A stretch of 64,000 nt of DNA, filler included, from Dirinaria sp. TL-2023a (lineage: Eukaryota): NCBI GenBank assembly GCA_051941275.1. It is 4 parts of 4 records of this genome, joined end to end, with 100 filler letters (N's around TTAATTAATTAA, not from the genome) between each part and the next. Parts side by side here need not be neighbours in the genome. Positions count along the whole stretch, not along the records: positions 1 to 16,705 come from JAVEBF010000474.1; 3 more parts are not named here. One strand, written 5' to 3'. The position numbers and the translations under genes are program-made. The notes under the pieces are model-generated. The model was not told the DNA's origin. It ran no database searches and saw only the letters and a list, made by a program, of their open reading frames with translations. Of this stretch, positions 8,089 to 50,334 are shown piece after piece; position 1 is the stretch's first letter; each line of letters opens with the position of its first letter.

Positions 8089-8844
8089 TCACGCAGGTCG
8101 TAGTAGCCAAGCCGTTTCAGCATCGGTCCACTCAAACTCTTGTGGTCCACTTTCATAGCTCGATTCAGCTGCCACCATCCACCCTTTCCGCTTTGCCACC
8201 TTGTGCATCATGTCCCTAAGGATATGTAACTCCATGTCCCTCATGATAGGTAACCCCATCTCGTGGGAGTCATTTATTTCGATCTTGAGCTCTTCGTGCA
8301 CCGACGAGAAGCTAGCCCGATTGATCACATCTTCGACCACTTTTAACTCTTTAGCCTCCCACTCCTCACAGGTTTGGAGACCCGCGAAAACTTGCCCAAA
8401 GCATATGCATAATTTTTTGAAGGCGCAGCCGCTATTCTCGAAGTAGACAAAAATATCACGGAGCTCATATGCCAGGACATGAAGCTCAGTACACGAGAGA
8501 TACAAATAAAAGTCCTGGACCAGAGTTAGGCGTAGTGTCGAAAAGCCGAACGGGATATAGTCCTCCCACCAGCGGTAGAAGTGGGGCAGCCGCTCATCGA
8601 GATAGAACTTATTCTCGTGGTAGAAGATGAGGAACGCCTCATTGTAAATCTGCCGGCAAGTGCGAAGAAGTGTAGTGATCGCTGTTCCGTCATAGTAAAA
8701 GCAAAAACGTTCTTCATCGTCGACAAGAGCGAGGCGATATATCTTGTTGCGTACTTCGCCCGGAAGATCCAAGAAGCTCAAACCAGCTTGCGTGCCATTC
8801 CTGGAGGAACACAACTCCTTCGAAGAATTTTTCACTTCAGCCAT
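8089..8844 (-). CDS. F-box-like fungal hypothetical protein, 251 aa (same family as 2044-2796)
   Basis: Intact ORF with SFLDLPGEVRNKIYRLAL and LLRTCRQIYNEAFLIFYHENKF. Confidence 0.7.
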   Translation of the reverse strand: MAEVKNSSKELCSSRNGTQAGLSFLDLPGEVRNKIYRLALVDDEERFCFYYDGTAITTLLRTCRQIYNEAFLIFYHENKFYLDERLPHFYRWWEDYIPFGFSTLRLTLVQDFYLYLSCTELHVLAYELRDIFVYFENSGCAFKKLCICFGQVFAGLQTCEEWEAKELKVVEDVINRASFSSVHEELKIEINDSHEMGLPIMRDMELHILRDMMHKVAKRKGWMVAAESSYESGPQEFEWTDAETAWLLRPA

Positions 8845-9060: not shown

Positions 9061-10080
9061 GTTCGTGAATCACAAAGAGTGTGGCTACTGAAGGTTGAAA
9101 CACAAAAATCAAAACCCCTGTTCTGCAAATTCAACCGACAACAAAGGGATTGTCACACTCAACCACACCAAATATCATTCCGCATTGACTATCACACACT
9201 GTCAAAACACCTGGTCAGACAATCAGATGTGTCAGAAAATGTGGAAATCCAAGCAACGACACTTGTTGAAAGAAAAGATTCAATCAAAAATTTTAGGCTG
9301 TGACAAATTATTTCTGTTGAAGTGGCAATTCAACAGAAAGGATGACTCACGAATTTTCATGCCAAGAAGACAGAAATCTGCCCCGGCCTCACCCCCCATC
9401 GGGCCTCGAGTGAGCGCCGCCTTAAAGTCGCGCGACCTGGGTGATCGTCGCGCGACCCCGGGTGATCCTGGGTGACTGCGCCCCCTTCTTGAGGGTGAGC
9501 TGCTGCCCGATCGCCATTCTATCCAAGACCAGGTCAGCAGGTCTTTCGGACGTAGTGAATCCGCAGTGATTGGATCCGCAGTGATTAGCGAGACCACTCG
9601 GCGCGGAGCCTTCGCATGTCTACTGAAAAAGCGGCGATAACGGAAAATGATCTGATATCGGCCTCAAACACATTCTTTCCTTCCTGACTTCGTTAACAGT
9701 TTCTATTTCTTTCTCCTCTTTCCTTCGTTTTCCTTCCCTCCCCGCTCGCACAGCTCACGCAGCTGTCGACTTCTCCAGTACCGTCTTAAGACTGTGCGTT
9801 CGAATCTGCATCCCGTACTAGTAAGCGGCGACGATCGTTTTTAGCTTCAACGCCGCCGCCCTCAGTCGAAACGTCCCCACCATGACCACGATATTCCTTA
9901 CTTCTAGCTTCGTATCTTCATCAGCACAATATCATCTGAATTCTTCTTCACGACCCGTTTTCTACGCTCTCTCTCAATCATCGTCTCCTCATCCACGCTT
10001 CATCGAAGTCTCTATATTTTGCCGCTGCCCTCTAGTGTGCTTCAGCTGACATCTGATTGGCGCTTTGACTCGCTTTCTAG

Positions 10081-11900
10081 CTCATTTGACATGATCACTT
10101 GCTTGTGACAAGCAGTGAGCAATCGATATGACTATGAAGATGGTTTCAACGATAGAAAGTCACGGTTGAAGCTGTGCTTCTCACGACAAAGATCAATCAA
10201 ACAAACGCTAGACGTTCGTGAGCAAATTTCAATTTGCTGCGCTGCCGATGCATGCCAACATGATCTGAGGCTGAACTGCTGATCGATCTTCTGACATTTT
10301 CTGTATGAATCGACTTGAACTGATTGAGTCATTTCAATCAAGCTCAGCTCGCATGACTTTCAGAGTTTGATGATTCTTTACTCTGCGCGAACATTGACTG
10401 AGAGTTTCAGCTTGCAAGAAGAATCTAGCGAAAAGGAACTGTCGAACGAGCATATGACTTATTAACAAATGACTCATTTCACATTGCGATCGCTTCAGCT
10501 GTTCATCTGTCGGTCTGATGCTTCGATACGAATCACACATCAACAAGAATTTTGATCTATTACTCGAGAGACTAAACGTCAAGCCAATCTTCGATCGTGA
10601 GTCGAAGCCGACGAATTGAGTGTCAGAATGTCGATCTCGTCTCAATCGACATCGATCTTTGCTTGTCAGTCTGACTGCTCTGACAATGATGCAGCGACTG
10701 CATGAATCTCGTGATGTGATTTCTAGAAATCGATCTTCTCTGACGCTGAGAATCGTAAAAAGCGCAGTAAAGCCGATAAGCTATATGAGCCTCACCTCGA
10801 GGATCTAGTGTGCAGCAGCTGACATGACTTGACGAATGTAGACGTCTTCGAAAGACGCAGTAGAATTCGTGTTGCATGATGAATTAGCAATTGAGTACGA
10901 AACTTCAACGATCGAGAGCTGCGCTAAAGTGTGTTAATGAAACACAACGACTTCTGATCGACGATCGATGATGTGAGAAAATAGTAGAAAAGAAACGACG
11001 TTCGCAAGCTGAGAAGATGACAATGAATGATCTTGCAACTCTCAGCGTAAATGATTCTCTCTCGATCAGTTATTTTCATTGAAATTTCTCAGTCAAATGA
11101 TCGTCATCTTTGCGCATGTGCTGTACAATGACTGACAAGATTTTTCATGAATTCAGTCAAGACTTCGATCAACATGAGACTGCGTGACGACGAACGATCT
11201 GCAGTCTCGAGCTTCTGTATTTCTACAGTTTGTAGAAGAGCAGCAATATTCGAGCTCTTCGACAAGCAAAGAATCGAATAGAGTTCTTTAAGAGTACGAT
11301 CTAATCAAACACGCGCTCTGAGATGAAAAGAAAGAGACTGAGCGACTTCACATCTCTCTTGAGCTGCGATCACATGTTGTGCATCGAAGCGATGACGTCG
11401 TATTCTAGATGATTTGTCTCTCTGCACGATAGATGAACATGAATCGATGTCGAACGAGATGAAACAGTTTATTTTTTAGTCTCATTCTTTTCGCGCATTC
11501 GAATAGATTAGAGCTAGAAGTGATTCGTATCATGTTTTGACTTTGCGACAGCTAGCTAACTCGTCAGTGAACATCTTGTATGCTCTTGCTCAAGATATCT
11601 CTGACAGCTTCAGAAATATATCATTCTACAAGTATAATCATTCTCATTGCAGCACTTTCAGATGAGCAAAACGTTTGTTATCGTTTATCGCTGTATGATT
11701 GTGACTAAGATTCAGCCCTGATTCAGCGGCCCTAAAAGCTTTCAGTAAATAATCACAGTTCTGAAGTCTTCTCATCTCTTCTCGAACAGCCTCAGAATTA
11801 AGAAATTTCAGTGCCGAGTGACGAAGAGTCAGAAATCGTAAACATTGTTGAGAAGAGAAAGACAAGAAGAGATTCTGATTTTAAGACGCGTTAGAAGAAT
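10081..11900 (+). pseudogene. Hypermutated ~600-codon reading frame of unknown family, convergent on the NLR
   Basis: One frame (frame 1) reads protein-like throughout. Its stops are mostly TGA with some TAG/TAA, revertible to Trp/Gln codons by single transitions. Possible upstream exon near 9882. Confidence 0.4.
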
Positions 11901-12439
11901 ACATGACTTCTCAGAACAGAATTGAGAAATGCACATGACTGCTGCCGCAGTCTGAGATCACGTACAAGACGCTGCGAGATGGCAAACGAAAGAGAGTTAC
12001 ATGAGCAGATAAGGATTAGTAGTTATTTTAATGAAGGCTTATCTTCTACGAACATTTGTAAGTCAATCAACATCGAGTTGAGCGAGTTTTAAACTATGTC
12101 AGTTGCTTAAAATTCTCTAGTCTAGCTTTGTGCGGAAACATGCTTCAAGTGTGTTCGTCTTATTGTTGACAAGATGCTAGAATATCAAATCAAGTGATAT
12201 CGGTTTGCTGTGACTTTTCTGAAGTCGTTCATGAAATCTTTTGTCTTTTGTACAAGAAAATCTCTGCATTGCTAAGCTTGACTTAGATTTCAGATGAAAT
12301 AGCGAGGGACATTCTCTTTGAGTGCTTTTCAATATCATCTTTCAGTTTATCTTAGATCAATCTTGTCGGGGAAAGATTTCCCACCAGACAATATCCTTCA
12401 TGAATGCTTCAGATTCCTTTGGAAGATGAAGTTGCTAAC

Positions 12440-15400
12440 TCAACCATCATGTACTTGTAACTTGTTCAGGTTACGTTCGATCATTTTCACTTTTGAATAA
12501 TGTGGATCTCTAAGTTTTGTAAAGTCATTCAGTGCTCGCTGATACATCTTCTCCGCCTCGATCAACTTGCCCTGATCAGCGTAAAGAAGACTCAAGTTGT
12601 TGACGATTGTGAGTGTCGATGTGTGCTCTGAACCTCATGCTTTCTTCTTTTCATTCAGTGCTCGCTGATACATCTTCTTCGCCTCGATCAGCTTGCCCTG
12701 ATTTCAGTAGAGAAGACTCAAGTTGTTGACGATGTCGAGAATCGATGTGTGCTCTCGATCTCATGCTTTCTCTCTTTCATTCAGTGCTCCCTGATACATC
12801 TTCTCCGCCTCGATCAGCTTGCTCTGATCAGCGTAAAGAATGCTCAAGTTGTTGACGATGTCGAGAATCGATGTGTGCTCTCGACATCATGCTTTTTTCT
12901 TTTCACTCAGTGCTCGCTGATACATCTTCTTCGCCTCGATCAGCTTGTTCTGATTCTTGTAAAGATTACTCAAGTTGTTGACGATTATGAGTGTCGATGT
13001 GTGCTCTTGATCTAATGCTTTCTTCTTTTCATCTAGTGCTCGCTGATACATTTTCTTCGCCTCGATCAGCTTGCCTTGATCAGCGTAGAGATTGTTCAAG
13101 TTGATGACGATGTCGAGTGTCGATGTGTGCTCTGAATCTCATCCTTTCTTCTTTTCATTCAAGACTCGCTGATACATCTTCTCCGTCTCGATCAGCTTGC
13201 TCTGATTCTTGTAAAGATTACTCAAGTTGTTGACGATGTCGAGAGTCGACGTGTGCTCTCGATCTCATGCTTTCTTTTTTTCATTCAGTGCTCGCTGATA
13301 CATCTTCTTCGCCTCGATCAGCTTGCTCTGATCAGCGTAAAGAAGATTCAAGTTGTTGACGATGTCGAGTGTCGATGTGTGCTCTGAATTTCATTCTTTC
13401 TTCTTTTCATTCAGTGCTCGCTGATACATCTTCTTCGCCTCGATCAGTTTGTTCTGATTTTTGTAGAGATTACTCAAGTTGTTGACGATGTCGAGAGTCG
13501 ATATGTGCTTCGAATTCAATGCTTTCTTCTTTTCATTCAATGCTCGCTGATACATCTTCTCCGCCTCGATCAGCTTGCTCTGATCAACGTAGAGAAGGCC
13601 CAAATTATGAAAAGCACCATTACAGTCTTCGTCTTCGATCTCATCGAGCTTCTCAGTAATGTGAAGCTGCTGCATACATCGATTGACGTGCGAAAACAAG
13701 CGTCGCTGCATCACTCAAAATGCTGACTCTGATTGCTCAGACACAGCATCTTCAACAACGATCAGAGCAAGTCTTATCAAATCAAGCTTGCCACAACTGA
13801 TCGACTCGATACATCAATCATGCACGATCGAATGCATGAAGTAGCTTTCGATGTCTTGATGCGACTCGATCAACGAGTAAACGAGCAGCCTTTTCATCAC
13901 TCTCTTAAATCTCAACTTCTGTCGAACAATATTTTGCAGTCAGTCTGAGTCTTTCGAGTCTCGACTGTCACGAGTCAGCAGCTCAAATCAGAGATCTTGA
14001 TGATCAAGATACGCTCATAACTGAAGAAGTTTCGTCGCTGCGAGATTCACTTGTCTGATACGATCGTATGAGATCGTTCATGTCGTCTGCACGCTGTCAT
14101 TCGCATAATCACGCATTCGAGACATCTCTGTCTGAAGTGCGAATCATGATGTTTCGTACAATCTAAGATAACTCTGACAGCTCGTCCTCGTTCTCTGCAT
14201 GTATCGATCGATCTGAACGATGACTAGCGAAAGCTCTTTCAGTCTGATCACGAGAATGTTCATCTCTGCGTATTTCTTAGTTCAGATAATCAGAACGAAG
14301 ATCAAAGCACGTGATTATCTGACGTAGACAGACATGCTTGTACGTTATTTCTGACAATCTGACGTTCTTGTTCTTGATCAACACTCGTCATTTTCGTCGT
14401 CGACTCATGTTCTTCAAGATGAGGAAGTCTTGTAATGATCAGAACGAAGTCATGATTATTGACGAAAAAGAAGAACTCGATGTCATAAACTTATTGATCT
14501 TTCGTCTTCGTCTGATAATCTCGATCAACGTTGTCAAAAACTAGAAATCATCGATGATTGTCGTCACGCGCGAGTCATCGAAGAACAGCATTCGTCTTCT
14601 CTCACAATTTCTGATCGTGTTCGATAGCGCTGATCGTCGACTCTCGTGTGTTGTCGATCTCTGTATCTTTTGCAAATGTCGCAAGACTCTGCACAAGCGT
14701 ATCTCGACTGTTGCCGTTTAGTTATAGAATCGCATTATATCTCTTCTGATATTTGCGAGCATATGCGATGACTAGCTGCGTCTTGTCAATGTCGTCGAGA
14801 TCGTGAAAAACGTGAATTCGTCGCTGATCTCGCGCATTCGACGAAAGTAATGATCGTTCGATCGATCTCATCTTCTGATCTCGATCGACAAAGTTATCAG
14901 TAATCGACAGATCAGTAAGACGAAACGGCACGCGAAAACTATTCTGTTCAGAGAAACAATGTTTTATAAAACAATACTGCTTAGAAATCGAGTATCGTCT
15001 GTTGAGAGAAGTGATTTCATATCTCTCGCACTATCTATCTTGATTTCGAGTCGTGATAAGGTCTGACGACTGCTCGATCATCTTTTCGATCATCTCGCAT
15101 ATCGTCTGAAAGTCCTTTTTCTTCGATCGTTCGAACTTGTTCATACTGAAATGATTTCGCGATAAAGAGTATTTTTTCGTTGACTCGCTCTGATCTAGAC
15201 AGTCAGAAGTCTCGTCGATCACAAATTTCTTTCTTCTCGATCAGTCTCGCGCTCTTTTTGAATCTCTCTCACTTATCTGAATTCGAATCTCGCGAAGAAT
15301 GACGCTCACATTGCTCGATTTCTGCTCGAAGAAACAGATTATCTGAGTCTTGTCTTCGTCTCGCCTTGTCTCGAAGAAGTATGCTGTCAGATCTATCAAA

Positions 15401-16153
15401 CTCTCGTTGTCAGAAAATAAAATGTTCAGCATCGCTCTCTGCATTTGATCTTCGACGTATTGACTCTGAGCAGCCCGAAGCATCTCTCTCTGATTCAGCT
15501 TCTCTGCGCCTCGAAATGATGTCTCGAAGAACATCATGTCTGTTATAGACTTGAAGATCTCAGATCATTTGATGTCGAAACGCTGCGCATCGATCATCGT
15601 CTAAGCGCTGTCAGCGTGACATCGTCGCTTCTAGCTGAATATCTTACTCGTAGAACGATCAGATCATCAAAGCAGTGTGCGATGAACAGCAGAGAACGAA
15701 GAGAATCAGTCTGTCGACTTGTAAGCATCACTGAGACATGTCATTTGTCAGTCGAGTCATACTTTTCGAGCTCGTCGAAGACTCAGAAGAAGACGCTGAG
15801 CTACTGTCGAAATCTTCTGACTGATAGTCTCGTTCTCGAATCACTGCGACTGATATTCATATCTCATGATTCGAGCATTCGAAACTATCGCCGACAGCAT
15901 GTGTCGATTCTTAAATCAATTTACATATTTCTTCGACGAGCCGTCTGTGTCGATTCTCTTACATCAGATGTCATCCGAATGAGCGTCAATCCCGTGAATA
16001 GCGACAATGCTGAAGCAAGACTGTCAGCGCCGACGAGATGAAATGCTCGAGAAGAGTATTGAAGTCATACTTCACCGACGATGTAGAAGTCGCGCTCTGA
16101 GCGTTCGAAGAAGGCTCGTAAAGAACCTTGATCCCGATGTCGTCGTTCGTCAT
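12440..16153 (-). pseudogene. Fungal NLR pseudogene: SesB-like alpha/beta-hydrolase - NB-ARC - TPR repeats
   Basis: Decayed motifs: IVAIHGIDAHSDD (HGIGAHPDD), NARIMRYEY, FIAHCFDDL (AHCFGGL), FFETSFRGA, NFVDRD, P-loop HDLDDIDKTQL (HGLGGIGKTQL), Walker B FLVFDNVD, then TPRs of the YQRAL.G.EKAWGPEHTSTLDTVNNLG type. Many premature TGA stops. Confidence 0.9.
12520..13610 (-). repeat. Tandem array of ~9 x 126-bp (42-aa) highly similar TPR-coding repeats
   Basis: The word GCTCGCTGATACAT or a one-mismatch variant recurs at ~12534, 12660, 12786, 12912, 13038, 13164, 13290, 13416 and 13542, a spacing of 126 bp. Confidence 0.92.
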
Positions 16154-16705
16154 CACTCGCATCTAGGTCTCATCAACCGCCGTCTGTCTAGTCTCGATTG
16201 TGCACTTATCATGATGAAGCGCAATCTAGAGGCGTCGGCGAGTAAGACCAACACAAGCAACCGTATAAAATTTGTATTGATCTGTAAAGGTTGAGTAGAC
16301 TTAGATCAATATCTGGGAAACTAATCAGATCGAGTTTAGTATCCGTGTGTCACGATTATGTCATCTTATCTCGGCACTCTTAGCTAATTAGATATAGCGC
16401 CTCGCCTTAGCTCAGCGAACCCACATACTGGTTCCATTGTACATATCCTCTTCCTCTATAGCTAATTTCCTTCTCAAGCTATGACAAGCTGGGCCTATGG
16501 CTCGAAAGGGGTTTCTGGGAGGGGTTCCGGGAGTGTAGGCCCAACCGCAGGACTAGCTAATTTCACAAATTTCCTTCACAGATTGTGATCTGCACGTCTT
16601 GCGAAAATCGAGTAGAATTGTGTGGAGTTGTGTGATATAGTTTAATGTTCTGAATCTGAATGTCTTTATAATGATGCGAGAATCATAAACAAGAGCTGTA
16701 AGCGC

Positions 16706-16805
16706 NNNNNNNNNNNNNNNNNNNNNNNNNNNNNNNNNNNNNNNNNNNNTTAATTAATTAANNNNNNNNNNNNNNNNNNNNNNNNNNNNNNNNNNNNNNN
16801 NNNNN
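16706..16805. other. Artificial contig spacer (N44-TTAATTAATTAA-N44)
   Basis: 100-nt N-run with a six-frame stop linker; identical structure occurs three times. Confidence 0.97.
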
Positions 16806-16872
16806 TAGTAGATGACTACGAACCACCGAAGAGCTCAAATCCCAAAACTACCACTTGGATTCGAAGTCCTGA

Positions 16873-17051
16873 AGTAAGAGAATCGAGCATGGATCATGCA
16901 TAGAGGGGAGAAAAGTAAACAAAAATTTCCAAGTCCCGCACACACAGATGGTTAGATCTGCCGTCTAACCCTGAATTTTCCTAGGGTTCCGGGACTTGGT
17001 CACAAAGAAAAGTCTTCCCTCTATGCATGACCCATGCTCGGTTCTCTTACT
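16873..17051. mobile_element. MITE-like foldback element, 179 bp, with 39-bp terminal inverted repeats
   Basis: Left arm AGTAAGAGAATCGAGCATGGATCATGCATAGAGGGGAGA (16873-16911) against the reverse complement of 17013-17051, AGTAAGAGAACCGAGCATGGGTCATGCATAGAGGGAAGA: 36/39 identical. Inner stems CCAAGTCCC/GGGACTTGG and GGTTAGA/TCTAACC. No clear TSD. Confidence 0.65.
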
Positions 17052-17772
17052 AGTTCGATAGGAACGATTCAATTGATGAACGTATCTAGGAACGCTACCG
17101 ACGTGACCGCTATCTGCAAATTATTTTGTCAAAATGATCTTTGACAGCTTAAAAATTAACTAGCAGCTCAAAAGAGAAAGACACCTTGACAGGCTCTTGA
17201 AACTTTGAAATATCTAAAAAATGTGGTATCTCATTCTCTAGTCGGGTGCGAGTTTTCAAGAACATCAGCAACTCGTCATAAAATTGTGTTGACGAAAAAA
17301 GATGAAAAATTGGTCTTTGCATCGAAGTGCCGCTGTCAGATAGACAAATCGTCAATTCTGAATTGATAAAATAGTAGGAAATCCTGAGGAGGAACCATGC
17401 ACAGAGAAGAAGAAATGGAGTAATGAACTGATTGAATTAGCACCGGATTTTGCAGGGCCATGGGATGGGAACATTCATCTGACTGATATGTGGTCAGAAT
17501 ATCGCTACTCTCTACTCAAAAGAACAAACGGTTCTCCGAACCTCAGTGCTTACTTTTGTTCGGCGCCTTCTACAGAGAAGGGTTTTAGAGTTGAGTACAC
17601 CCTACTTTTTCTCAAAAGCTACGATACCTTACCTAGAGAGCTTAGGTAACATATTCGTGCATCTAACCCTTATCGATAAGATAGCTTTGACTTCAATATT
17701 GGAACGCACAGCACGAAATTCTTCGATTATTTCTGACAATTAACCTCCTTCTGTAACGGAGCTCCGGCTTCA

Positions 17773-19300
17773 ATGGCTTCTGACCTAGGCCTCACAGATA
17801 ATGTGCGGCCAACTCAAGTCAGATTACAATTGAGGTCTCGCGACTCAGACATTTCATTACCGGAGAATACGGGGCCTATACTAGTGAATACAAGTACTTG
17901 GTCCAGTATACGCGATTAGTTTGGAAGGACGTGTGCTAAGAGCCCGCCTAGACCTGCGTCGATATGCGTTGTCGACCTTAGTCAATACTCTCCTTCAGAC
18001 GGAAAAGCCTATACCTCTGGAGTTCCTGGTCAATGGTACCTTTCTCCGGACGTCCCTTGACGAATATCTTATATCCAACGGCATATCTGCTGAGACAGCC
18101 CTTACCGTCGAATATGTCCGTGCGATTGTACCTCCGCTTTACCTTGCTTCCTTCGAGCATGACGCTTGGGTGAGCTCTGTGGACGTGCTTTCATCAACGT
18201 CTACTGCGGCCAAACGGCGAGAGAATGCAGCCATCTCTCTTTCTGGCAGCGAGAGGATAGTATCAGGTAGTTTTGATGGGCTGCTCCGAGTATGGAATCT
18301 GTCATCTGAAGTTTTGGCCACATCAGCGGGAAGCAACAATCCACCTGTCAGGACGGCGAAATTTCTTTCCCCTTCACAAATTGCTTCCGCGGGAGACGAC
18401 TGTACTGTTCGAATATGGAACTACGCAGAAGAGGTAAACTCTCGTGTGGGGTCTCTTGTATCTAAGCTAGAGCTTCTTGGTCATGAACGGTACGTCAATG
18501 ATGTGGCCGTTCATCAATCCTCGAATCGCATCCTTTCGGGATCAGCGGATTGCTCTGTGGGACTGTGGTCCATGAAAAAATCAGATGCCCCAGCAGCGCC
18601 GACATCCCGCCCACCCTCTACCGCGTCCAGTAATAAGCGTCGAAAGCTCAGCAATGCAAATCAAGTCCCTCAACGCGGGCCACTGTCCATGATGAAAGGA
18701 CATGCCGACTGTGTTTCAGCGACCATGTTCGCTCCAAGTGATCCTACTGTCGCATACTCCACTTCTTGGGACCATACTCTCAAGACCTGGGATTTACCCA
18801 CTGCTTCCGTCGTTGATACGAGGACCACTTCGGCGTCCTTGTTCTCCTTGGCTTCACTATCAGCCCTGAACCTTGTAGCTACTGGAAGCTCGGATAAGTT
18901 CATTGCCCTGATCGATCCTCGCGCATCGGCGACTACAGTCACTGCGATGACTCTGAGGGGTCACACCAATAGTGTAGTGAGTCTGGCACCGGACCCGGCC
19001 AGCTCGTACGCCCTAGTGAGCGGCAGCCATGATGGAACATGTCGGGTGTGGGATGTCCGATCTGCAAGTAGTGAAAGGGAGGGCAGAGTGGGAAAAAGCA
19101 TCTATACTATCACAAGAGAGTCTGCGAAAGGCGAGAAGAGGGCACGTGCCGGTGGAGAAGGAAGCAAAGTATTTGATGTTGTGTGGGATGCAGATGTGGG
19201 GATCGTGAGCGCCTCAGAGGACAAGAGAGTACAGATCAACCAGGGCAAAGGGGTGACTAGTGAGAGCAATGATACCCAGGATGTGAAAATCCTTCAATGA
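17773..19300 (+). CDS. YTM1: Ribosome biogenesis WD40 protein Ytm1/WDR12 (one intron, ~17894-17950)
   Basis: N-terminal NLE/ubiquitin-like domain (LRRYALSTLVNTLL...PIPLEFLVNGTFLRTSL...VEYVRA), FEHDAWVSSV, WD40 repeats, SASEDKRVQIN. Confidence 0.93.
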
Positions 19301-19494
19301 AGCATACTGTCAATAGATTTTGAATTCAGGTCATTGCAGGCAGATAGGTCGTTTGCTCCATCGGAAGCACAAAGTATCAAATTCTTCACCCGCCTAGCCA
19401 TTTGCTATGTTCAACGTACACCAGACAGCCGCCGCTAACGCCAACGCTATGCGCATTATAGATGAACCACCTCTGCGCGCCATCCCACCGGTCT

Positions 19495-19978
19495 CTATAT
19501 GTGTCGATCAAGCCGATTGAGCTTCTTCGCCGTCGCGATCTGGTTCCCCGTTCTCTGTCCCCTCACAGGCAGGCCCGCGGCGTGCCTCCTTCCCCTATAC
19601 GCCCCGATCTCGCGCAAAGTCTTGATATTGCCCTTGATCTGTCGCTTCAGATCGTTCTCGATCGTCAGGGTCGAGAGCTCCGCGTTCAGTCCCCGGGTCT
19701 GTTTGCTGGTCAAAGAGCTGACTTTGGCGGTGGGGTGGATGTAGTTGCGGGCCATGAGGCGTGCGGAGAGGTTGGGTCCTACGCCGTAGAAGGCTTCGAG
19801 ACAGGACTGTCGAAGGGGGGAATTAGTTTTTATGCTGCAGGGCGTCGAATGGGGGGAAGGGGATTGTTTTTTTTTTTTTACTTTGACAGAGCGAGTCTCG
19901 GCGAACGGGGTTGCGAAGATGATCTGCTCGTGGTTTAGTCGTGGTTTCGATATGGGATGGAAGAGGGTAAAGCACCAT
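19495..19978 (-). CDS. SWS2: Mitochondrial ribosomal protein uS13m (two introns)
   Basis: Spliced M|IIFATPFAETRSVK|SCLEAFYGVG..., with the S13 signature IGAYRGRRHAAGLPVRGQRT. Confidence 0.9.
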
Positions 19979-20216
19979 CTTGTTGTGCTGAGCTACTTCA
20001 GTCTCTGCGAGGAAATTGTACCTCAGTAAGATATGTACATATACAGGACTGTAGGTTGATTGACCTAGATGGTTGATCTGCACCAATGCTGGCGCTGCTT
20101 ACCTAATCCGCTAGCGCGGCTGTGAAACACCTTGCCTCTTGCATTGACAGGCTTGACAGGTTTCTTCAGCTCCTTGACGCAACATTCGGCCATTTGTGAT
20201 TGACAATCAGCATCAG

Positions 20217-21022
20217 ATGTTCATGAACATGGCGAACTTTCAGCGTCTCATCATATCCTTTCTTCTTATACTAACAGCTGCCTTCCTCTTCTTCGCCCAA
20301 TCTTCCCAAGCGGCCAAGGGACCTAAGATTACCCACAAGGTAGGACCAGTAACTCCAACTAGCTTTATTTAGTCAGGTCTTGACAATTCGAACAGGTCTA
20401 CTTCGATATCACTCATGGAGACGAGCCGATGGGAAGAATTGTAATTGGCCTCTACGGCAAGACCACTCCGAAGACGGCCGAGAATTTTCGGGCTCTAGCC
20501 ACAGGAGAGAAAGGCTTTGGTTATGAGGGTTCTACATTCCACAGAGTTATCAAGCAATTTATGATCCAAGGTGGTGACTTCACCAAGGGTGACGGTACAT
20601 CTATCCTCCCTGATCGCTCTAATCCACGGTGTTACTGACCTCGATGATGCAGGAACCGGTGGAAAGTCGATCTACGGGGCGAAATTCGCGGACGAGAACT
20701 TCAAGTTGAAGCACAGCAAGCCTGGAATGCTTAGCATGGCGAATTCGGGCGTAGATACCAATGGCTCCCAGTTCTTTATCACTACTGTGGTTACCAGGTA
20801 AGTATCCTGTCCTCACTCGTAATGGCACAACACTTATGATATCTTGGTAGTTGGCTTGATGGCAAGCACGTGGTTTTCGGAGAAGTTGTAGAAGGGATGG
20901 ATGTTGTTACAAAGATCGAAGACGTGCCGAAAGGCATGGGCGACAAGCCTTCCAAGACCGTTAAAATCGCCAAGAGCGGCGAATTGGAAGTGCCTGAAGA
21001 AGGTATTCATGCGGAGCTCTGA
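20217..21022 (+). CDS. cypB: ER cyclophilin B peptidyl-prolyl isomerase (signal peptide, three introns, C-terminal HAEL)
   Basis: Hydrophobic N-terminus then [56 protein letters not shown]; ends EEGIHAEL*. Confidence 0.92.
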
Positions 21023-21097
21023 TTTGGCTTCATCCCATCACCTTACTGTTGCATCCCTGACGCTCGGGAATCGCTGATGGTTGGGGCTCTCTTCAAG

Positions 21098-21291
21098 GTC
21101 CTACTGAATCCGCCGAGCCATTGGCAGCAGGGGACGAGCTAGGTGTGACTGCCTCTTCAATCCCTGTGGAACATAGTTCCGGGACTGGCATTTTATCGAA
21201 GCTGATCTTTTTCGGTATCATCATCGGCGCTGTTGCGGCCTTCTTGAGGACCCGGAAAAGCCCTGTTTTGACAGAGAAGAGTTTGGCTTGA
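21098..21291 (+). CDS. cypB: Predicted alternative last exon of cyclophilin B encoding a transmembrane anchor
   Basis: Donor G|GTATTC at 21003, CTGAT branch at ~21074 and AAG acceptor at 21097 give in-frame GPTESAEPLAAGDELGVTASSIPVEHSSGTGILSKLIFFGIIIGAVAAFLRTRKSPVLTEKSLA*. Confidence 0.65.
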
Positions 21292-22020
21292 ATTTGCTAT
21301 ACACGTGATGAAAACATGGGGTGGGAAATAATGTCAAACATGCTGTAGGCAAGCAATGCATCATGCATGTGATCCTTCGAACCATCTTACATGTACCTTA
21401 CATTACCTACTTTACCTTAGATGCCTCACTCTACTATTTCTACCCTGTGCCAGGTTTGTTTGATGTTGTTGCACCGTTCAAACACAGTGACAGCCCTGTC
21501 CCCTTGCCCTCCATCAGAAAGCGGTTTAGCGCACATGTAAGGCGGGTTCTTTTCGGTAAGTGTAGCCTGTACTCCGTACTTTAGGGAGGGTTTGGGAAAT
21601 TCTGACAAAATTTTGCCTCCGTCACTCTCTCCTGTGCACTCAAAATTCTCTGACCACCATTTCACTTCAACCCTCTCATTCCCTTTACACATCTTCCACT
21701 CTCCACAAGTAATAGTGCTCTTGACCCAACTGTCTTGCCTTGCTTGATCCTGAGCAAGGAGCAAGACGAGTTATCTTGAGCATCTAGTCGTGTTTTCCTT
21801 TGGCTGACTTTGCATTCTGCACGGATTAAGTCCTTTCCTGTCATTACTGAAGCACTCTTCTCCGGCAGAGTACTTTACATGCCAGGGCGTCTTTGTGAGT
21901 CACTATCTCATTACTGTTGCTGTTTCTCAGCACGTACATGTCAATTACCAGGCTGACTCAAGGTTATAGCCTACCTCACTACCAAACAAATAGCTGTGAT
22001 TCAGAAGCCGAGATTACATC

Positions 22021-24136
<2,116 letters not shown>

Positions 24137-25579
24137 AAAGGTCTGGTGCATACGCCTTGCTCTTCTCTGCTGGGACCCTTTCGAAAGTCTACGAGCAAGG
24201 CCTTTGGCTGACCAAGTCAGCCCTCAGCACCCCTGACGAATTTTCACAGTTGCTCTATTGCACACGGACTATTCAACTCTCTAGATTTTCTCGGAGCACT
24301 TTTACCTTGCGACACATGCGATTCTTTTCGGCATGCCGGATCTCGGATTGGTCACCTTACTCAACCAAGTCGTCATCTGCAAAGCACCAATTTCTTGCAG
24401 GACAGCGAAGATAGATAGCGTTGGCCTATGCCTTTCTACACCGCACTCGATAGCTCTGCTTCTGGCTTCTAGATGTCGTGGCAGGCTAAAATTGGCCAAG
24501 CGATCAAGATCGGCAACACAGCGTGGTGTCATTGGACGCGAGTGGTCTACAAACCCTACGACGTCTCACGTTGCGGTACCTCGACGACATTCCGGCATCA
24601 CTGCATCTTCATAGATTTTTCTCGATTTCAGCGATCTTTTGTCAGGCCGAGGCCTGATCGATTCCCCGGCATATCTTTGTCTAAAACGCCAATGCGAGTT
24701 AGCCTTTAGCGAACCTTCTCTACTCACATAGACTTGCATGGAGCCCTTCTGCCTTCTCGAGGCATCACTGGTTTACGGCTTCATAGCGATAGATGGGCAT
24801 GAAAGAGCGATTGGCGTTGTTAAGGGCACACTCTCGGCTGCTCACAACCCGCGCAGCTCAATCGTGCTCGATGATTTGGGAGGTTAGTACGCGCTTCTAT
24901 TGGCGGTCGATTCTGATGGTCAACGGCGGACCGGGATTCGGTCTGGGATGCCATCCATGATATGCATTGGATGGCATGCGAGTCTGGCAACCTAATAATG
25001 CTCTAGCTTTCCTAAAACAGAAAAGCAGAGAAACAGCATCTGTAGACCTTCAAGCTCAACTTATTCGTGCCAGATGAACTGCCCGTCAGTACTTGAATCA
25101 TGATCACGTGATATCAATGCAAGCTCATACTAAGCTCACATTTCTCTCGGCTAATATTAATTACACTTCTGATGGCATTTCAATCTGGCCATTGCCTGCT
25201 CTAAATTTGCGATGAGAGCGCAGACCAAGCGAGCCCGCCTCGGCCCCTGAGGTATGTTGAGAAATTACGTAATCCGGAATAGACACATCTAGGTAATCCG
25301 CGTAGGAATCGTACCCCTAATAATGATATGTAGAGGTAAAGCCCAGATTCCACAAACATATGTAGTTTCTCCTATTTTGATTTACACCGGCCAGCTTTCC
25401 AGTGACAGCAGCGGATTTACTAACGCCCTGATCGAATTTTTGTCTACTTGTCAACCTTTCTCGTCCTGGGATTATTGATGGGGTGAAATACTAGGGAGCT
25501 AGGAGATTATGAGCGTTCATTTGGATGCGACAATCATATCTAATCCTTTCGCCGCATTAGGAGATTGCCTGGGACTTCT

Positions 25580-28007
25580 ATGGCTGCTGCCGTCAGTCCC
25601 GAACATGAGCACCTGTCCTCGGATTCTGGACATGCCCACTCCTCGCGCCCTTCGACTCCCCTGAACATTCGCCCTATAGCCGCATCACGAGAGATGTCGT
25701 CGCCATCCATGACCACAAGACAGAACGGCCGCGCCATGTCGCCCACCAGGAACGATGAGCCGGACCCGAGACAATCTCTAAAGCATGTGCTTACGCCGAA
25801 CGATGCTCCCGTTAAGCGCCCTCGTTCTAAAGAATCTTCAGCGCAAGGGAAATCGAGCAAAGCACAGAAGAACATGATCTGGATTCATGAAGGTGGTAGT
25901 GACCCAACAGAGACCGAGACCAGTGTACAGAACGATTCGTATACTCGGGCAGCGGAAGTCAATCCCTCATATACTATGACTGTTGCGCATACGCGGCGGA
26001 ATGCCAATGGAACTGTGGGCTCGGTCTACTCTGGCAATAAAATCAGACATTTGAAGAAGGAGGATGGTATCCCATTGTGGCGGAAAGACATCCAATTCTC
26101 ATTCCTGCGAGCCGTATTCGAGGATCAGACTGCTGTATTCACGAAAGCTTTCGATGGAACGAAAGGGCACACATTCGCTGACATCTACATTGATGCTATG
26201 GCAAGGAGCAGCAAAACGAGCAAGATTCTGAAAGAGAAGCTCTTGTCGGAGCGCACAGCAGCGCTCAATATGGCCATGGTCTGCTTGCTCGTCAACGTGG
26301 GACGAATGAACACTACTTTGAATTGTAAGGTCGCCAAAAGGAGAGACAGCACGACTTCTGCTGATCGTTGACAGTCTTCCCTGAAATGCGCGCTCAATTG
26401 AGGACATACCACGCTATACCATGTCTCCAGGCTCATCAAGATCCTATTGCTTATAAACAATTGCAAGATGCGCCCCGCCTTAAGTCCATCCTAAAAGGTG
26501 CCTCGGAAGATGTAAACCAGCCCAACTCCCTTGACAAAATCAAGTCCATGCCAATCCCTCGCACCAACCCCGTCAATTTAATATTTGTGCTGTCGCAGTA
26601 CGCGCCTAAAATATCAGAAACGCACTTTTTCCCTCCCCGGGACTTCTTCGACTTAGTTATGCGGGGCACGCTGAGCAGCAAGAGCAGGGCAAAGGCTTTC
26701 TTATGGCTGATCTGGTTTTACTTGGAGAGTGACTTCTCAGGTCATGCGGCAGAGATCAATCCGTTCGGCCCAGGGCAGGTTGGAGAGGGGACCGGCGGCC
26801 TTCCACTTAAAGTTCCTAAATTTGACCATCTGACCGAGGCGCAAGCGGATGCTGAGAATGTCGACACAGAAGCCGAAAAAGCATATGGAGAGAGGAAGAG
26901 ACAGGAAAGAATTCGTATACTTGAAGAAGACGCAACGGTTGGACCGCCTCTGAAGAAAGCTAAGAAAGGTACACTTGCCCTGCAAATTTGAATCGTATCC
27001 AATTTTATCTAATGACATGACATCTAGGGAGCAACGCCCCGAACGATATTCTCACATCTGATGTAGATCGCACACGGTCACCCTCACCTGCCGCCGATTA
27101 CGCCGATTCTTTCTATTCCGTGCAGCGCCCGGCTGGTGTAAAACATGAAGTGCCGGGGGACAGCCTTCCAGCATTCCAACCCATCAACCGGGATGTACCT
27201 TATCAGGGATCAGACTCCACACCGTCACAGCGATTAGTTTTAAAGACTCGGCCATACCGTATACATGGCGCTTCCCCTGCACCAGGGCGTGGCTCAAGTC
27301 AGCCGCCCGTGAACAATGCCCACGGCAGTGGAGCTGGATCAAGGCGTTCACGGCCCGAGACTTCTCACCAGAAGGCTGTCAATATTAATCGGAGAATGCG
27401 AATTGATCGCATCTTATTTGAGAAACTCACAGTGGAGCATCGGCGTGTACGCGCTACGCGGAAAAGGCAAGGGCGTACGGGCATCTTTAGAGCCATGAGG
27501 CGTATCCGTAACTTGCCGGACAACTACGACACAGAAGATGAGGATACATGGGGTCCTGGGGGACTGTTCCCGGAACGAGAGGAGTTGGAGGACTACGGGG
27601 AAGAGGCTACCTATGTCAGGAAGATACTGGACAGGGCTGTACGACGGTTAACGCGAGAACTGAACGAGGGCACTGTGAACGGATCGAAGAGAGAGCACCG
27701 CAAGCGAAAGCGAAAACCAGAGAACGTCCCCATGAACGACGGCCAATACGGGTTCAAGCCCCGGAAACGTAGCAGATTCAATGAGGATGATCGTCGCTCG
27801 AGAGGTGGAGGACGTCGCAGGCATGAAGTGGCGGATGATGGGTTGGATGACCTGGACCTTGACCTGCTGGGTGAGAGTCGGGAGGAGGAACCGCTGGAGG
27901 CAGAGACGGAAGGTGAGAGTGGTGGGGTTGGTGGTGGTGGTGGTGGTGGTGGTGAAGCGGATAGCGGAGACGACATGACCGAGGACGAGACGGTGGAAGT
28001 TGCTTGA
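25580..28007 (+). CDS. IES1: INO80 chromatin remodelling complex subunit Ies1 (two introns)
   Basis: GSVYSGNKIRHLKKEDGIPLWRKDIQ, VNVGRMNTTLN|FFPEMRAQLRTYH, KQLQDAPRLKSILKG, PRTNPVNLIF, FLWLIWFYLES; acidic/Gly tail including a (GGT)n run at ~27927-27953. Confidence 0.88.
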
Positions 28008-28996
28008 AGACGCTTGAAGATGCTTTTCATACTTAAGTCGCTATCTGGGAAGCTATTTTGTACGTGCGCCAATGGTGCATGGGGTTACGCAATGACGGCT
28101 GGGTCGTGATACATCATTTTTGTTGTACCTACTTTACCTTACCTTACTTTCACTGCAGCAATGATCTGAGCTTCGTCCAACACCGAGTGCCACCAAGCAT
28201 GCGAGGTATGGATAATTTCTCCATACGGATTATGCAGTATCAGGGAGTCTTGCATGGAATTGGTCCCCTTATGACGTGGTGTGCCATTGCAACACCTTAC
28301 TTTACATGTATGTAGGCTACAGTTACAGTATCTACCTTAGCTCCTAAGGCAAGGTACGTCAGCCTTTGCCGAAGGTGGGCTGAGGGACGTTGGGTTATCT
28401 ATCTGCCTTCCATTTACCTTCAAGGCCCTCGTCCAAATTTTCAGCCGGTTGTTTGCTTCGGCTCTTGGACAGACACAAAACGGCGGGCCGGATGTCGGAC
28501 GATCTCTGCACGATCGGCCGGAACGGAAGCGGGAAAACTAAAGGAGAGAGAGCGAGAGGGAGAGAGAAGAAAGGGAGAGGAAAAAAATGCTCCGGTGTTC
28601 ATGTTCACATGCATTTGAACGCGCCATCAAGCGCTTTCGGATTGGACCCTTTCATTATTATGCAGTCATTCCTTCCATCTTACATGGATCATTGGCCATG
28701 TCAGCTCCGACTCCTCACCGACTTCATCACAGTACGAGTACGAGTAAGGTACAAGCTACATACTTTGATCCTCTGTCTCCCTCGCTATTGGGAATGGGAA
28801 GATCCGCTACGTCATTGGTTTAATCTGTAATATCTACAAACATCTCATTGGTGTTATACCCGGCCAGGCTGACGTTTATATCTGCTTTATTCAAAGCCAT
28901 CCCTAAAACCTTCCAGCACCAAATGCTCATGACCGCCCACGATCATTAAATGCGAAGCCTTTACGAAATAAGATTTCCCAATTGCATTCAGGCGAG

Positions 28997-30148
28997 ATGA
29001 CGAGTACTTCACCAGTTCTCCGGCCGATTCCCCGGCGGAATTTCGACTTGACCGCATCGTCGACGACCTCTTCCAGTCCCAAAACTCCGTCACCCACAAG
29101 CGAGAGGATCGACTACCCACAGTCGGGCCAGGGGACGCCGAAGTTCAACAGAACACGGTCGATCCTCAATTTGACCTCATCGACCTTGTTCGGCATTTAC
29201 TCCCCCTCCGAAGACTTATCGACGCCTTGGGGCAATGGTGCTCAGACACCCGCGTGGAGGGGAAGCCTGGACGACAACAGACCGCCGGTTATTGGCGCTT
29301 ATATAACCCCTGCCCTGCTGAAAGCGCATCCACGCAATCAATTCGTCGTTCGCGATACATTCATTTCACTCTTGCTCCGTACCGGTCTGCTCTTCATCCT
29401 TGGCATAGCTTATGGAGTAATTATCATTCATCTGCATGACGACCATCGGCTGGCTCCGGTCAAGGTTGCTGGGATCGAACGATATTCGTCCTGGTACCTG
29501 CTGACGTGGGGTGTAGCCGGCGTCTTGCTTGGTAACCTGTTGCCGTGGGTGGACACGTTCTGGGAAGAGACTGCTACAAAGGACCAGGAGTCGTATATGA
29601 ATGTGAGAGATGAGAAAGACCATATTGGGCCTTCTGGTCCGGGCGAAAATGAGGACGAAGGGCATCCGCCTCGGTCCGAAGGAGGGGACGGCGCAGATTG
29701 GACGCTCGTCATTCGAAGTATAGGAGCATTCATCGGGATTGCCCTGGCTATAGTAAGATCACTTGCCAATGATTTGTGGTACAGAAAGCTAACTTCACTG
29801 CAGAGGAGACTTCCCTGGGAATCCACGCTTCAAGCCTCACTGACACTCGCTCTGGTCAACCCAGTGCTATGGTATTCAGTAGACCGCTCAAAACCAGGAT
29901 TTGTGCTATCAACGATAGTCGGCATTGCAGGCACTGCAATCGCACTGCTCATTAACCCTAACATGGTGCCCTCCCCAGCCCCGAATGCGGTTCGTGGCTT
30001 GCACCGCAGCGCGGGTCCCATCAGCAATGAGAGCATCGCAGTCAGCACTTGGATAGCGAGCGTCCTGTTCTGCAGCAGCGTATGTTTTGGCAACATTGGA
30101 CGAATGCTATCCCTGGGTCATCAGGAGCGAAGAATGAGCACTCCATAG
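28997..30148 (+). CDS. INSIG-domain membrane protein (Nsg1/Nsg2-like sterol regulator); 51-nt intron 29753-29803
   Basis: RTRSILNLTSSTLFGIYSP, WGVAGVLLGNLLPWVD, VIRSIGAFIGIALAI|RRLPWESTLQASLTLALVNPVLW, VLFCSSVCFGNIGR. Confidence 0.88.
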   Translation: MTSTSPVLRPIPRRNFDLTASSTTSSSPKTPSPTSERIDYPQSGQGTPKFNRTRSILNLTSSTLFGIYSPSEDLSTPWGNGAQTPAWRGSLDDNRPPVIGAYITPALLKAHPRNQFVVRDTFISLLLRTGLLFILGIAYGVIIIHLHDDHRLAPVKVAGIERYSSWYLLTWGVAGVLLGNLLPWVDTFWEETATKDQESYMNVRDEKDHIGPSGPGENEDEGHPPRSEGGDGADWTLVIRSIGAFIGIALAIVRSLANDLWYRKLTSLQRRLPWESTLQASLTLALVNPVLWYSVDRSKPGFVLSTIVGIAGTAIALLINPNMVPSPAPNAVRGLHRSAGPISNESIAVSTWIASVLFCSSVCFGNIGRMLSLGHQERRMSTP

Positions 30149-30211
30149 AGTATGCGACGGTCGGGTTTTGGGTATCGCCTGCGATGCATGCATCATCAGT
30201 CAAGAAAGCTG

Positions 30212-30286
30212 TCTTTTTCTTTTTCTTCTTCTTTTTTTTCTTTTTTTTTTTCCTTTTCCTTTTTTGGCCTCTGCTTTTTTTTTTCC
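30212..30286. repeat. Poly-T/pyrimidine low-complexity tract in the INSIG 3' flank
   Basis: Long T runs interrupted by C. Confidence 0.8.
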
Positions 30287-31468
30287 GGGTTTCTCAGCCT
30301 ATGCTTACATTGATGATTAAAAGTTTCGATTCGAGTTCCGGTAGAATCATGACCGTGGGGGAAAGGATGGGCGGCATTCTTCGCATTTATCAGTTTAAGT
30401 GTGTCATATCGCGAATCTGCAACCGCCAAAATATAAAAAGGAAAAAGACAGCGCATCTTGATGCGACGCGGCTATCGATGGACCTTAGCTCACACGAGAG
30501 TTTTGAATTTTGAGGCAATCCTCATGGTATCTTTTCGTCCATGTCACACGATTGTAAGACGGTCGCTTCATTGTTGCTCAGATGTCATTGTAGCGGATTC
30601 ACTTTTTTACCTCTCCCTGTATACCACGATATTGAATGCAATGAAGCTGGTGCTTATTTGCCTAGCGATATATCTGCAGATGAGCCCTTTTATGAAGTTA
30701 CCGACGGTATATGTATATTTACATGTTTGATCTCAAGGATTTTTGATGTAGAGAGACTGAGCTTGGTAACGCTGAATTCTAAGGTTGATAGGTCAAGCCA
30801 ACGACTGAACGCGTGGAGCAGAATATCTCCACGATAGAAAAGACTTGAAAAAGCTCTCCACCTCACATTCTCCATGAAAACACACACACTCGCTTGGCTA
30901 CCAGTTTCTCGTTCGCGCCTGATAAATTTGTACAGCCAATCATTGCGGCCCTCCCCACAGTGCAGAAAGGGGAGCACCGCACCCAAGATCAACGGTGCAG
31001 AAGAAAAACTGCTTGGGTCTCCGATCTCGTAGACGGTTTCCTCGGTCCTGGAGACTACATGGGGTGTAGATCTTCTCGAAGGAAATGCTTTTATTGAGAT
31101 CGTGGATTGTTTGTTTTTTGCGTTGTATATGGAGAGGAAAGGTGGTTTAGCTGAGAAGTGAACTTGGATAAATGGATTGAATTCGGTTAGATACAGCCGA
31201 ACAACGCTAGATTAGCGTGTGCGGGAGATATCATAAGTACCTAGTGAATAGCAATCAACATTGCATCATGCCGCATGTAAACATTTTACGAATTTAAGAT
31301 CCTTTACTCTGATTTCCTTTCCTAAGACATTATCGCTTGCAGCCACCGAGCAATTATATCCCCATTACTGAGGCGCATGCATCTATTGCTATCCACATTG
31401 CTCGATTGAATTATCTGTGCATATCTAAAGCCTTGAACGTAAATCCTTGAAACTGCTATTAAGCCGCA

Positions 31469-33467: not shown

Positions 33468-33486
33468 GCCCCCGAAGGTCCGTAGA

Positions 33487-33586
33487 NNNNNNNNNNNNNN
33501 NNNNNNNNNNNNNNNNNNNNNNNNNNNNNNTTAATTAATTAANNNNNNNNNNNNNNNNNNNNNNNNNNNNNNNNNNNNNNNNNNNN
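33487..33586. other. Artificial contig spacer
   Basis: N-run with the TTAATTAATTAA linker, 100 nt. Confidence 0.97.
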
Positions 33587-50234: not shown

Positions 50235-50334
50235 NNNNNNNNNNNNNNNNNNNNNNNNNNNNNNNNNNNNNNNNNNNNTTAATTAATTAANNNNNNNNNN
50301 NNNNNNNNNNNNNNNNNNNNNNNNNNNNNNNNNN
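50235..50334. other. Artificial contig spacer
   Basis: N-run with the TTAATTAATTAA linker, 100 nt. Confidence 0.97.

Follow-up and report, generated by a model that had tools for sequence, protein, structure and literature searches.

CpC-directed C-to-T hypermutation of an NLR pseudogene in Dirinaria sp. TL-2023a

Here we examine a 64-kb stretch of DNA from Dirinaria sp. TL-2023a (hereafter the window), which consists of four contigs joined by linkers of N (TTAATTAATTAA; N runs at 16706-16805, 33487-33586 and 50235-50334). Within the first contig (1-16705), which is of a lichen-type fungus, lies a hypermutated block of ~6.2 kb (10035-16250, with no strand assigned) that has lost CC and GG dinucleotides and gained TC and GA, while CpA, CpG and CpT have been kept. 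The block carries on its minus strand the pseudogene of a fungal NOD-like receptor (NLR) with NB-ARC and tetratricopeptide repeats (TPR; 12440-16153), as recognised from Pfam, from homologues and from a full-length colinear match to one of them, and downstream of it a further stretch of hypermutated DNA (10040-12440). Reconstruction of the changes reveals that the 5' C of CpC has been changed at about ten times the frequency of cytosines in other contexts, or more.

An NLR pseudogene in a CpC-depleted block

The minus strand of 12300-16300 was translated through, with stops written as X, before the Pfam search, which recovered TPR_10 (3.4e-46, 154.4 bits) and TPR_12 (3.6e-39, 133.2 bits), both above their cut-offs, together with DUF7779 (5.9e-7, 30.1 bits against a cut-off of 27), the winged-helix region that follows NB-ARC in fungal NLRs. 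In the frame that begins at 16300 the latter match covers residues 750-835, and it corresponds to 13796-14053 on the minus strand. C-terminal TPR_10/TPR_12 repeats preceded by DUF7779 are a feature of the fungal NB-ARC/TPR NLRs, a class of the signal transduction ATPases with numerous domains (STAND). A protein search returned 239 homologues, among which every named match is a fungal NLR-type protein, many of them with NB-ARC and lichen fungi included. The closest full-length homologue, P0007 (1400 aa; source name Sticta canariensis), is colinear with the pseudogene from residue 3 onwards as far as the TPR array, across positions 16159 to 12443, giving the order of the pseudogene as an alpha/beta-hydrolase-like N-terminal domain, NB-ARC, DUF7779, eight TPR units and a short tail. 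Pfam does not detect NB-ARC in the mutated translation; the region is colinear with the PF00931 segments of P0007, P0020, P0057 and P0052. These four proteins combine NB-ARC (PF00931) and TPRs with an N-terminal region that has no significant Pfam match, that of P0007 giving a weak, sub-threshold match to DUF676 (putative serine esterase; E 0.0039).

Several motifs can still be traced along the gene. In the N-terminal domain, AHCFDD (15663-15680, minus strand) is the mutated form of AHCFGG, the motif found in 4/4 full-length homologues, whose cysteine presumably occupies the position where a lipase-type nucleophile elbow would carry serine. The Walker A motif or P-loop (14780-14805, minus strand) reads HDLDDIDKT where homologues read (H/Y)GLGGIGKT, four GGN codons having turned into GAY. 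Between NB-ARC and DUF7779 the alignment places a probable intron (GT...CAG; 14264-14343, minus strand), which would account for a frame change between two tblastn segments, and an apparently ordinary frame slip is located near 15640-15650. The tandem TPR array (12525-13603, minus strand), delineated by Tandem Repeats Finder (TRF) and by alignment, is ~1 kb long and comprises eight full units of 126 bp, TRF itself reporting 8.5 copies over 12525-13596. After mutation the units are still 85.7% identical in pairwise comparison, with transitions at 9.2% and transversions at 5.0% of the pairwise site comparisons, and the array must therefore have been highly uniform before mutation. An earlier, sequence-only reading of this DNA had counted nine such repeats, one too many. 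The codon examples from which it had drawn a mutational pattern are all present in the window, including the intact LGL codons TTGGGCCTT at 13595 and the AGT-bearing version TTGAGTCTT at 12587 and 12713. The gene is dead, with 29 TGA and no TGG among the in-frame codons of the pseudogene; the part 14314-12440 has 16 TGA, 0 TAA and 0 TAG, and the part 16008-14344 has 13 TGA, 2 TAA and 3 TAG, counts in which probable introns and the frame slip are included.

In the block as a whole, about 87% of the expected CC and GG dinucleotides are lost. Observed-to-expected ratios over 9900-16300 amount to 0.24 for CC and 0.11 for GG, against 1.68 for TC and 1.74 for GA, with CG at 1.35, CA at 1.10, TG at 1.18 and TA at 0.45. 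The corresponding values in a control contig of the same window (16806-33486) are CC 0.93, GG 0.99, TC 1.12, GA 1.17, CG 0.92, CA 1.08, TG 1.08 and TA 0.71. Counted on both strands, CC within 10040-16160 occurs at 7.3 per 1000 dinucleotides versus 56.5 in the remaining window (ratio 0.13), while the ratios for the other dinucleotides are 1.47 (TC), 1.02 (CA), 1.11 (CG), 1.10 (CT) and 0.78 (TA). The same interval holds 89 CC and GG, as compared with 543.6 +/- 19.5 in 1000 shuffles (minimum 483) and 503-805 in the 65 other N-free windows of 6121 nt.

This loss is confined to the block. In a 200-bp profile, its left edge at ~10030 is sharp and its right edge, at ~16000-16400, gradual, and composition is normal in the flanks and in the three other contigs (57 kb of surrounding sequence). 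The CC+GG positions, together with this profile, further distinguish a less mutated, AT-rich stretch (11700-12500, without strand) between two fully mutated parts, with 26 CC+GG per 800 bp (~32/kb) compared with ~12/kb elsewhere in the block.

Direction, context and strand symmetry of the changes

An NLR gene as target permits a clean reconstruction of ancestral states. For this purpose 100 of the 120 listed homologues were placed on the DNA by tblastn, the 454 codons with at least 20 homologue votes and at least 60% agreement were kept, and sites were sorted by their known or current neighbour. Mutated sites make up 97/135 of the CpC type, as against 7/116 of the CpA type, 2/47 of the CpG type and 7/45 of the CpT type; five of the seven CpT-type changes come from 'C then T' sites, in which the neighbouring T is possibly a mutated C. 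At the level of codons, ten conserved tryptophans have become TGA (nine) or TAA (one), and the 48 conserved glycines are now represented by GGN (7), GAN (23), AGN (10), AAN (7) and TGT (1). Thirteen conserved prolines read TCN or TTC in eight cases and CCA in one, the other four being CGA or CAA, codons that a transition in CCN would not produce. Conserved glutamine remains CAG/CAA in 17 of 18 positions, with one GAT and neither TAA nor TAG, and 13 of the 17 conserved arginines are still CGN.

Which of the two cytosines is changed can be read from the same alignment. The 14 stops aligned to W of P0007 comprise 13 TGA, one TAA and no TAG, and in conserved Gly codons the first G has changed in 16/19 cases after G, in 0/14 after T, in 0/5 after C and in 1/9 after A, the A of this lone case being the mutated last base of a former TGG. 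Since stops at tryptophan are TGA or TAA but never TAG, and since the first G is mutated when it follows G, the target is the 5' C of CpC, and specificity is set by the 3' neighbour of the mutated C, as in repeat-induced point mutation (RIP). Residual trinucleotide ratios of 0.22 for GCC and 0.20 for CCT, versus 0.06-0.12 for CCA, ACC, CCC and TCC, point to GCC and CCT as the targets used least efficiently. Runs of GGG in the TPR units carry a mutated middle G in 23/24 unit-sites and a mutated third G in 4/24, and a GAGGCG site survives in 7/8 TPR units, which suggests that the base 5' of the target C has a secondary influence, GCC being a poor site.

Both strands have been affected alike. On the coding strand 36/65 CpC and 43/78 GpG sites are mutated, and the two kinds of change are interleaved without strand patches (41 runs versus 40.2 expected; runs test z 0.18). 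The process was a double-strand one, at or near saturation.

Classical RIP indices place the block on the 'no RIP' side, with TpA/ApT at 0.42 and (CpA+TpG)/(ApC+GpT) at 1.38; the thresholds for RIP given in the literature are at least 0.89 and at most 1.03, respectively (PMC2621366 and PMC3897900), or above 1.15 and at most 0.75. TpA is not produced and GC content in the block falls only to about 42%, and the criteria of Margolin, RIPCAL and RIPper therefore call it unaffected. The optional CpC index of RIPCAL, (CpC+GpG)/(TpC+GpA), is 0.069 in the block versus 0.848 in the control contig. The sequence-only reading had thus been right in proposing that CC to TC and GG to GA are the dominant changes, that they occur on both strands, that CA/TG and CpG survive, and that standard RIP indices miss the block. 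It had also suggested a minor CpA component, which is weak, only one of the 14 W-aligned stops (the TAA at 14724) requiring a CpA-type change; CpT is probably the better candidate for the second-ranked context.

Comparison with relatives in other assemblies

A metagenome scan yielded a public contig, L001, with an NLR relative that is 72% identical to the pseudogene over 867 nt and 79-90% identical over single TPR units. With L001 as the reference in an alignment of 1557 columns, the window carries T or A at 79/143 CpC sites (55%), 28/198 CpA sites (14%), 38/191 CpG sites (20%) and 41/185 CpT sites (22%). The alignment contains, in total, 93 C>T and 93 G>A changes, as compared with 34 T>C, 40 A>G and 148 transversions when the eight kinds are summed. 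The eight TPR units of the window were likewise polarised by the L001 unit, which replaced a RIPCAL-style highest-GC consensus of the units that proved noisy because two TPR repeat subtypes alternate. Counts by 3' neighbour in these repeats are CpC 67/112, CpA 5/136, CpG 12/112 and CpT 13/128 (CpC 67/112 versus 30/376 for all other contexts, Fisher p 4.5e-29). Two sites supply 8/12 of the CpG and 5/13 of the CpT cases, and for these sites changes in L001 or an ancestral G neighbour offer the simplest explanation.

L001 itself carries a lighter form of the CpC signature, which argues against an artefact peculiar to the Dirinaria assembly. Its NLR relative (L001:5037-6932) is broken into open reading frames (ORFs), its P-loop reads GLDDIGKT, and its ten conserved W codons include seven TGG and two TGA. 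In a homologue-consensus test of L001, 10/63 CpC-type sites are mutated versus 3/98 others (p 0.006).

Protein relatives give a similar distribution. The closest intact one, P0127, is 71% identical, the intact homologues ranging over 61-71% protein identity. When nucleotide changes relative to P0127 are derived by parsimony, with three ambiguous codons skipped, the 49 inferred changes resolve into 35 window-derived transitions (28 CpC, 4 CpT, 2 CpG and 1 CpA), 8 reverse transitions and 6 transversions. Four intact fragments (P0124, P0125, P0126 and P0128) yield 39-46 changes at CpC versus 1-8 for each other context. A further relative, P0129, is encoded on a 1.9-kb contig and has the appearance of an NLR copy mutated even more heavily. 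Of the 58 derived residues in P0129, 28 share columns with the 40 of the window, and its extra changes (L>F, S>N, R>K, D>N and E>K) suggest CpT as the second-ranked context.

The 2.4 kb downstream of the NLR (10040-12440, no strand assigned) has no recognisable gene and is as heavily mutated as the NLR gene. It has no Pfam domain in any of six frames and no long frame free of TAA/TAG. Its relatives are predicted ORFs from other public assemblies (P0121, P0122 and P0123), none of which has a Pfam match, and an Atlas search with P0121 gave poor recognition (1155) and a top score of 0.80; these ORFs are probably not real proteins. P0123, a 226-aa ORF from another assembly (contig of 18.3 kb), shares 79% identity with 10212-10805 read in the plus frame, and 43 of the 45 inferred nucleotide differences between the two are transitions, 20 of them derived in the window and 23 in P0123. 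The two look, on translated comparison, like independently hypermutated copies; with both saturated at CpC, the remaining differences should fall mostly in minor contexts, as is observed. P0123 and P0129 are nearly free of Gly and Pro, yet have kept all W residues, which we conjecture to be TGA read under another table by the gene caller of the source.

A separate region of another organism, L002:5500-9958, lies beside an NLR-like TPR fragment and combines TpA/ApT values of 1.6-2.2 and a GC content of 32-41% with normal CC/GG, a composition that is classical RIP-like, in contrast to the block of the window.

Nature and reach of the mutator

These comparisons make a CpC-directed mutator well supported. 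As the best explanation overall, which we hold to be probable though by no means assured, the ~6.2-kb segment, comprising the complete NLR gene and 2.4 kb downstream, would have undergone RIP-like hypermutation of double-stranded DNA. The first C of CpC was converted to T, seen as GpG to GpA when the opposite strand is read, until close to saturation. On the coding strand TGG has turned into TGA, GGN into GAN (or AGN after G), CCN into TCN and ACC into ATC, and other contexts were changed at about a tenth of the CpC rate or less, CpT probably ranking second. The trigger of the process would be sequence duplication, in the form of a lost or unsampled sister copy, of the gene's own highly similar tandem TPR units, or of both, and the process would presumably act in the sexual cycle. 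The enzyme may be a homologue of the RID/DIM-2-type cytosine methyltransferases in which the 3'-neighbour preference has shifted from A to C.

This reading shares several features with RIP as it operates in Neurospora crassa and other Pezizomycotina, including changes limited to C:G to T:A transitions, on both strands of a kilobase-scale, sharp-edged segment, a specificity that depends on the 3' neighbour, and a gene left riddled with stops. In Neurospora RIP, CpC is the least used context. Unlike the Neurospora type, the mutator of the window prefers CpC, and neither the classical indices (0.42 and 1.38) nor the fraction of CpA sites changed (7/116) corresponds to the CpA preference, which in Neurospora is described as reaching as much as an order of magnitude (bioRxiv 10.1101/344036). 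Fungal lineages do not all share one context for repeat-directed C-to-T mutation, as is illustrated by the variants described in the RIPCAL paper, namely TpCpG in Microbotryum, CpG plus CpA in Aspergillus nidulans MATE, and CpT in Magnaporthe and Stagonospora (PMC2621366; see also Horns et al. 2012, PMC3318451). Unlike the block, however, none of these variants is of the CpC kind, and CpG is unaffected here (ratio 1.11). The RIPCAL paper, in the portions that were accessible, defines the CpC index and reports no organism in which CpC dominates (PMC2621366).

A parallel for the target is found in Podospora anserina, where nwd6 / nwdp-2 and NWD pseudogenes likewise represent internally repetitive NLRs pseudogenised by massive C-to-T mutation. 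NLRs of Podospora with highly similar internal repeats are reported to show an excess of RIP-like mutations, and duplicated NLRs to be heavily RIPed; in the account available, it is CpA/CpT sites that count as RIP-like, and the pseudogenes are said to have nearly intact WD40 repeats (PMC13449251). Unlike these, the TPR repeats of the window are mutated as heavily as the remaining gene (CpC 67/112). More broadly, a 2025 kingdom-wide k-mer survey of 1,239 fungi describes RIP-like defences as sharing a CpA preference, and its supplementary table classes at least two of the three rows for Lecanoromycetes as 'no_rip' (PMC12543289). Studies of RIP in lichen fungi, as far as their accessible text goes, rely on GC content or RIPper without stating the context, as for Cladonia rangiformis (PMC12542154), the Xanthoria 'Tangerine' preprint and Endocarpon pusillum (PMC3897900). 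In the literature searched, with subscription-only papers outside its coverage, we found no description of CpC-dominant RIP.

Involvement of repeats is hinted at, from sequence comparison, by the sharp-edged block, the repetitive TPR array and the apparent second mutated copy, P0123, known as protein only. The array of 8 x 126 bp could itself qualify as duplicated sequence (~400 bp or more at an identity of at least 80%). Several observations weigh against this reading or narrow it. By blastn there is no second copy of the block within the 64-kb window, and no convincing terminal or inverted repeats were found at the block ends. The stretch at 11700-12500, which adjoins the TPR array, carries fewer mutations than more distant DNA; a symmetric spread from the array, with the block extending ~2.5 kb to each side, was rejected on the ground that this flank is the least mutated part, which argues against a simple distance decay. 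Relative to L001, the fractions of changed CpG (20%) and CpT (22%) sites exceed the reverse-direction background of 10-13% in the three non-CpC contexts (11%, 13% and 10%), and the specificity is therefore strong rather than absolute, or the assignment of neighbours is noisy at 72% identity. Finally, P0123, P0127 and P0129 are known as proteins only, with nucleotide changes derived by parsimony, and W in P0123 and P0129 is possibly TGA under another code table.

Among the alternatives, decay of heterochromatin without any recognition of repeats fares best, and we still consider it unlikely. Under this explanation DNA methylated preferentially at CpC by a DIM-2/DNMT5-type enzyme would slowly lose its 5-methylcytosines to deamination, which likewise yields C-to-T changes on both strands within a bounded domain. 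To our knowledge, no eukaryotic CpC-specific methyltransferase has been found. A 2026 review describes DIM-2 as methylating all CpN with a preference for CpT, that is, for a pyrimidine as 3' neighbour (PMC13297926), and the second-ranked context in the block indeed seems to be CpT. Slow decay is difficult to reconcile, however, with a loss of 85-90% of CC beside a change of ~5% in other contexts, with intact homologues that are still 61-71% identical in protein, and with the scarcity of the ordinary substitutions that a slow process would bring (just 6/49 transversions relative to P0127). The near-saturation of one context together with recognisable homologues points instead to a fast, enzyme-driven burst.

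A single-strand DNA cytidine deaminase of the AID/APOBEC kind, acting during transcription, replication or repair without sensing homology, appears distinctly improbable. Cytidine deaminases have strong dinucleotide preferences, CC being the target of APOBEC3G, and an expressed NLR gene would expose single strands, so that the CC dinucleotide and the C-to-T outcome are features the block shares with APOBEC3G-type editing. APOBEC3G deaminates the 3' C on single-stranded DNA, with a G-to-A bias on one strand. In the block, by contrast, it is the 5' C that is changed, with specificity from the 3' neighbour, and the strands are equally affected without patches. Editing of CC to CT predicts TGG to TAG and Pro to Leu, against 0/14 TAG and five P>S versus one P>L observed, and the 2.4 kb without a recognisable gene is mutated like the gene. 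APOBEC3G-like editing was accordingly rejected, the wrong C being mutated and both strands affected.

A sequencing or assembly artefact, such as miscalls of modified C in long reads, or DNA damage, is scarcely credible even for a window that is a join of four contigs, given one block with a sharp edge amid 57 kb of normal sequence, a gene that also seems to bear an ordinary frame slip and non-CpC differences, the lighter version of the signature in the independent contig L001, the same Gly/Pro-poor mutated look of P0123 and P0129 from other assemblies, and the enrichment of TC, which dipyrimidine damage of the ultraviolet type would deplete as its substrate and which is here the product.

If the RIP-like, CpC-directed reading is right, its reach may extend beyond this locus. 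We place at even chances the broader proposal that a genome-defence mutator of this lineage or of lichen-forming Lecanoromycetes, its context preference reversed with respect to classical RIP (CpC far above CpT and CpT above CpG and CpA), strikes host NLRs and is perhaps nucleated by their own near-identical tandem repeats. Such a mutator would barely alter GC content and would generate no TpA, and would therefore be invisible to RIP screens based on indices or GC. Genome papers detect RIP almost only by indices of the TpA/ApT type or by low GC, both of which a CpC-directed form escapes, so that lichen fungi may have undergone more repeat-directed mutation than is now estimated. The view of a shared CpA preference, and that of 'no RIP' in the sampled Lecanoromycetes, would then need revision. 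In addition, nature would have supplied a RID/DIM-2 variant whose flanking-base specificity is altered, and a natural enzyme with switched neighbour specificity would offer a direct handle on how enzymes of the RID/DIM-2 type choose their cytosines; according to the 2026 review, catalysis by RID was not detected in vitro (PMC13297926). The destruction of a host NLR gene by such a process also bears on the expansion of immune-receptor families in fungi with this kind of defence.

Three other features of the first contig were observed. Two intact ORFs of ~250 aa on the minus strand (2044-2796 and 8089-8844) match DUF7730/2EXR and have normal CC/GG. This paralogue pair was considered as a test of repeat targeting on the same contig and proved uninformative, because its proteins are only 32% identical. 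The contig end (1-1500, without strand) is AT-rich and partly depleted of CC/GG in the composition profile, with a GC content of 29-38% and a CpC index of 0.03-0.38 in 200-bp windows versus ~0.5-1.2 in the genes between, and probably represents the margin of a further mutated block, of greater age, that the end of the contig truncates. Lastly, a 21-bp GC-rich tandem duplication (two copies, 9427-9467) lies in a stretch of 62% GC ~0.6 kb outside the left edge of the block.

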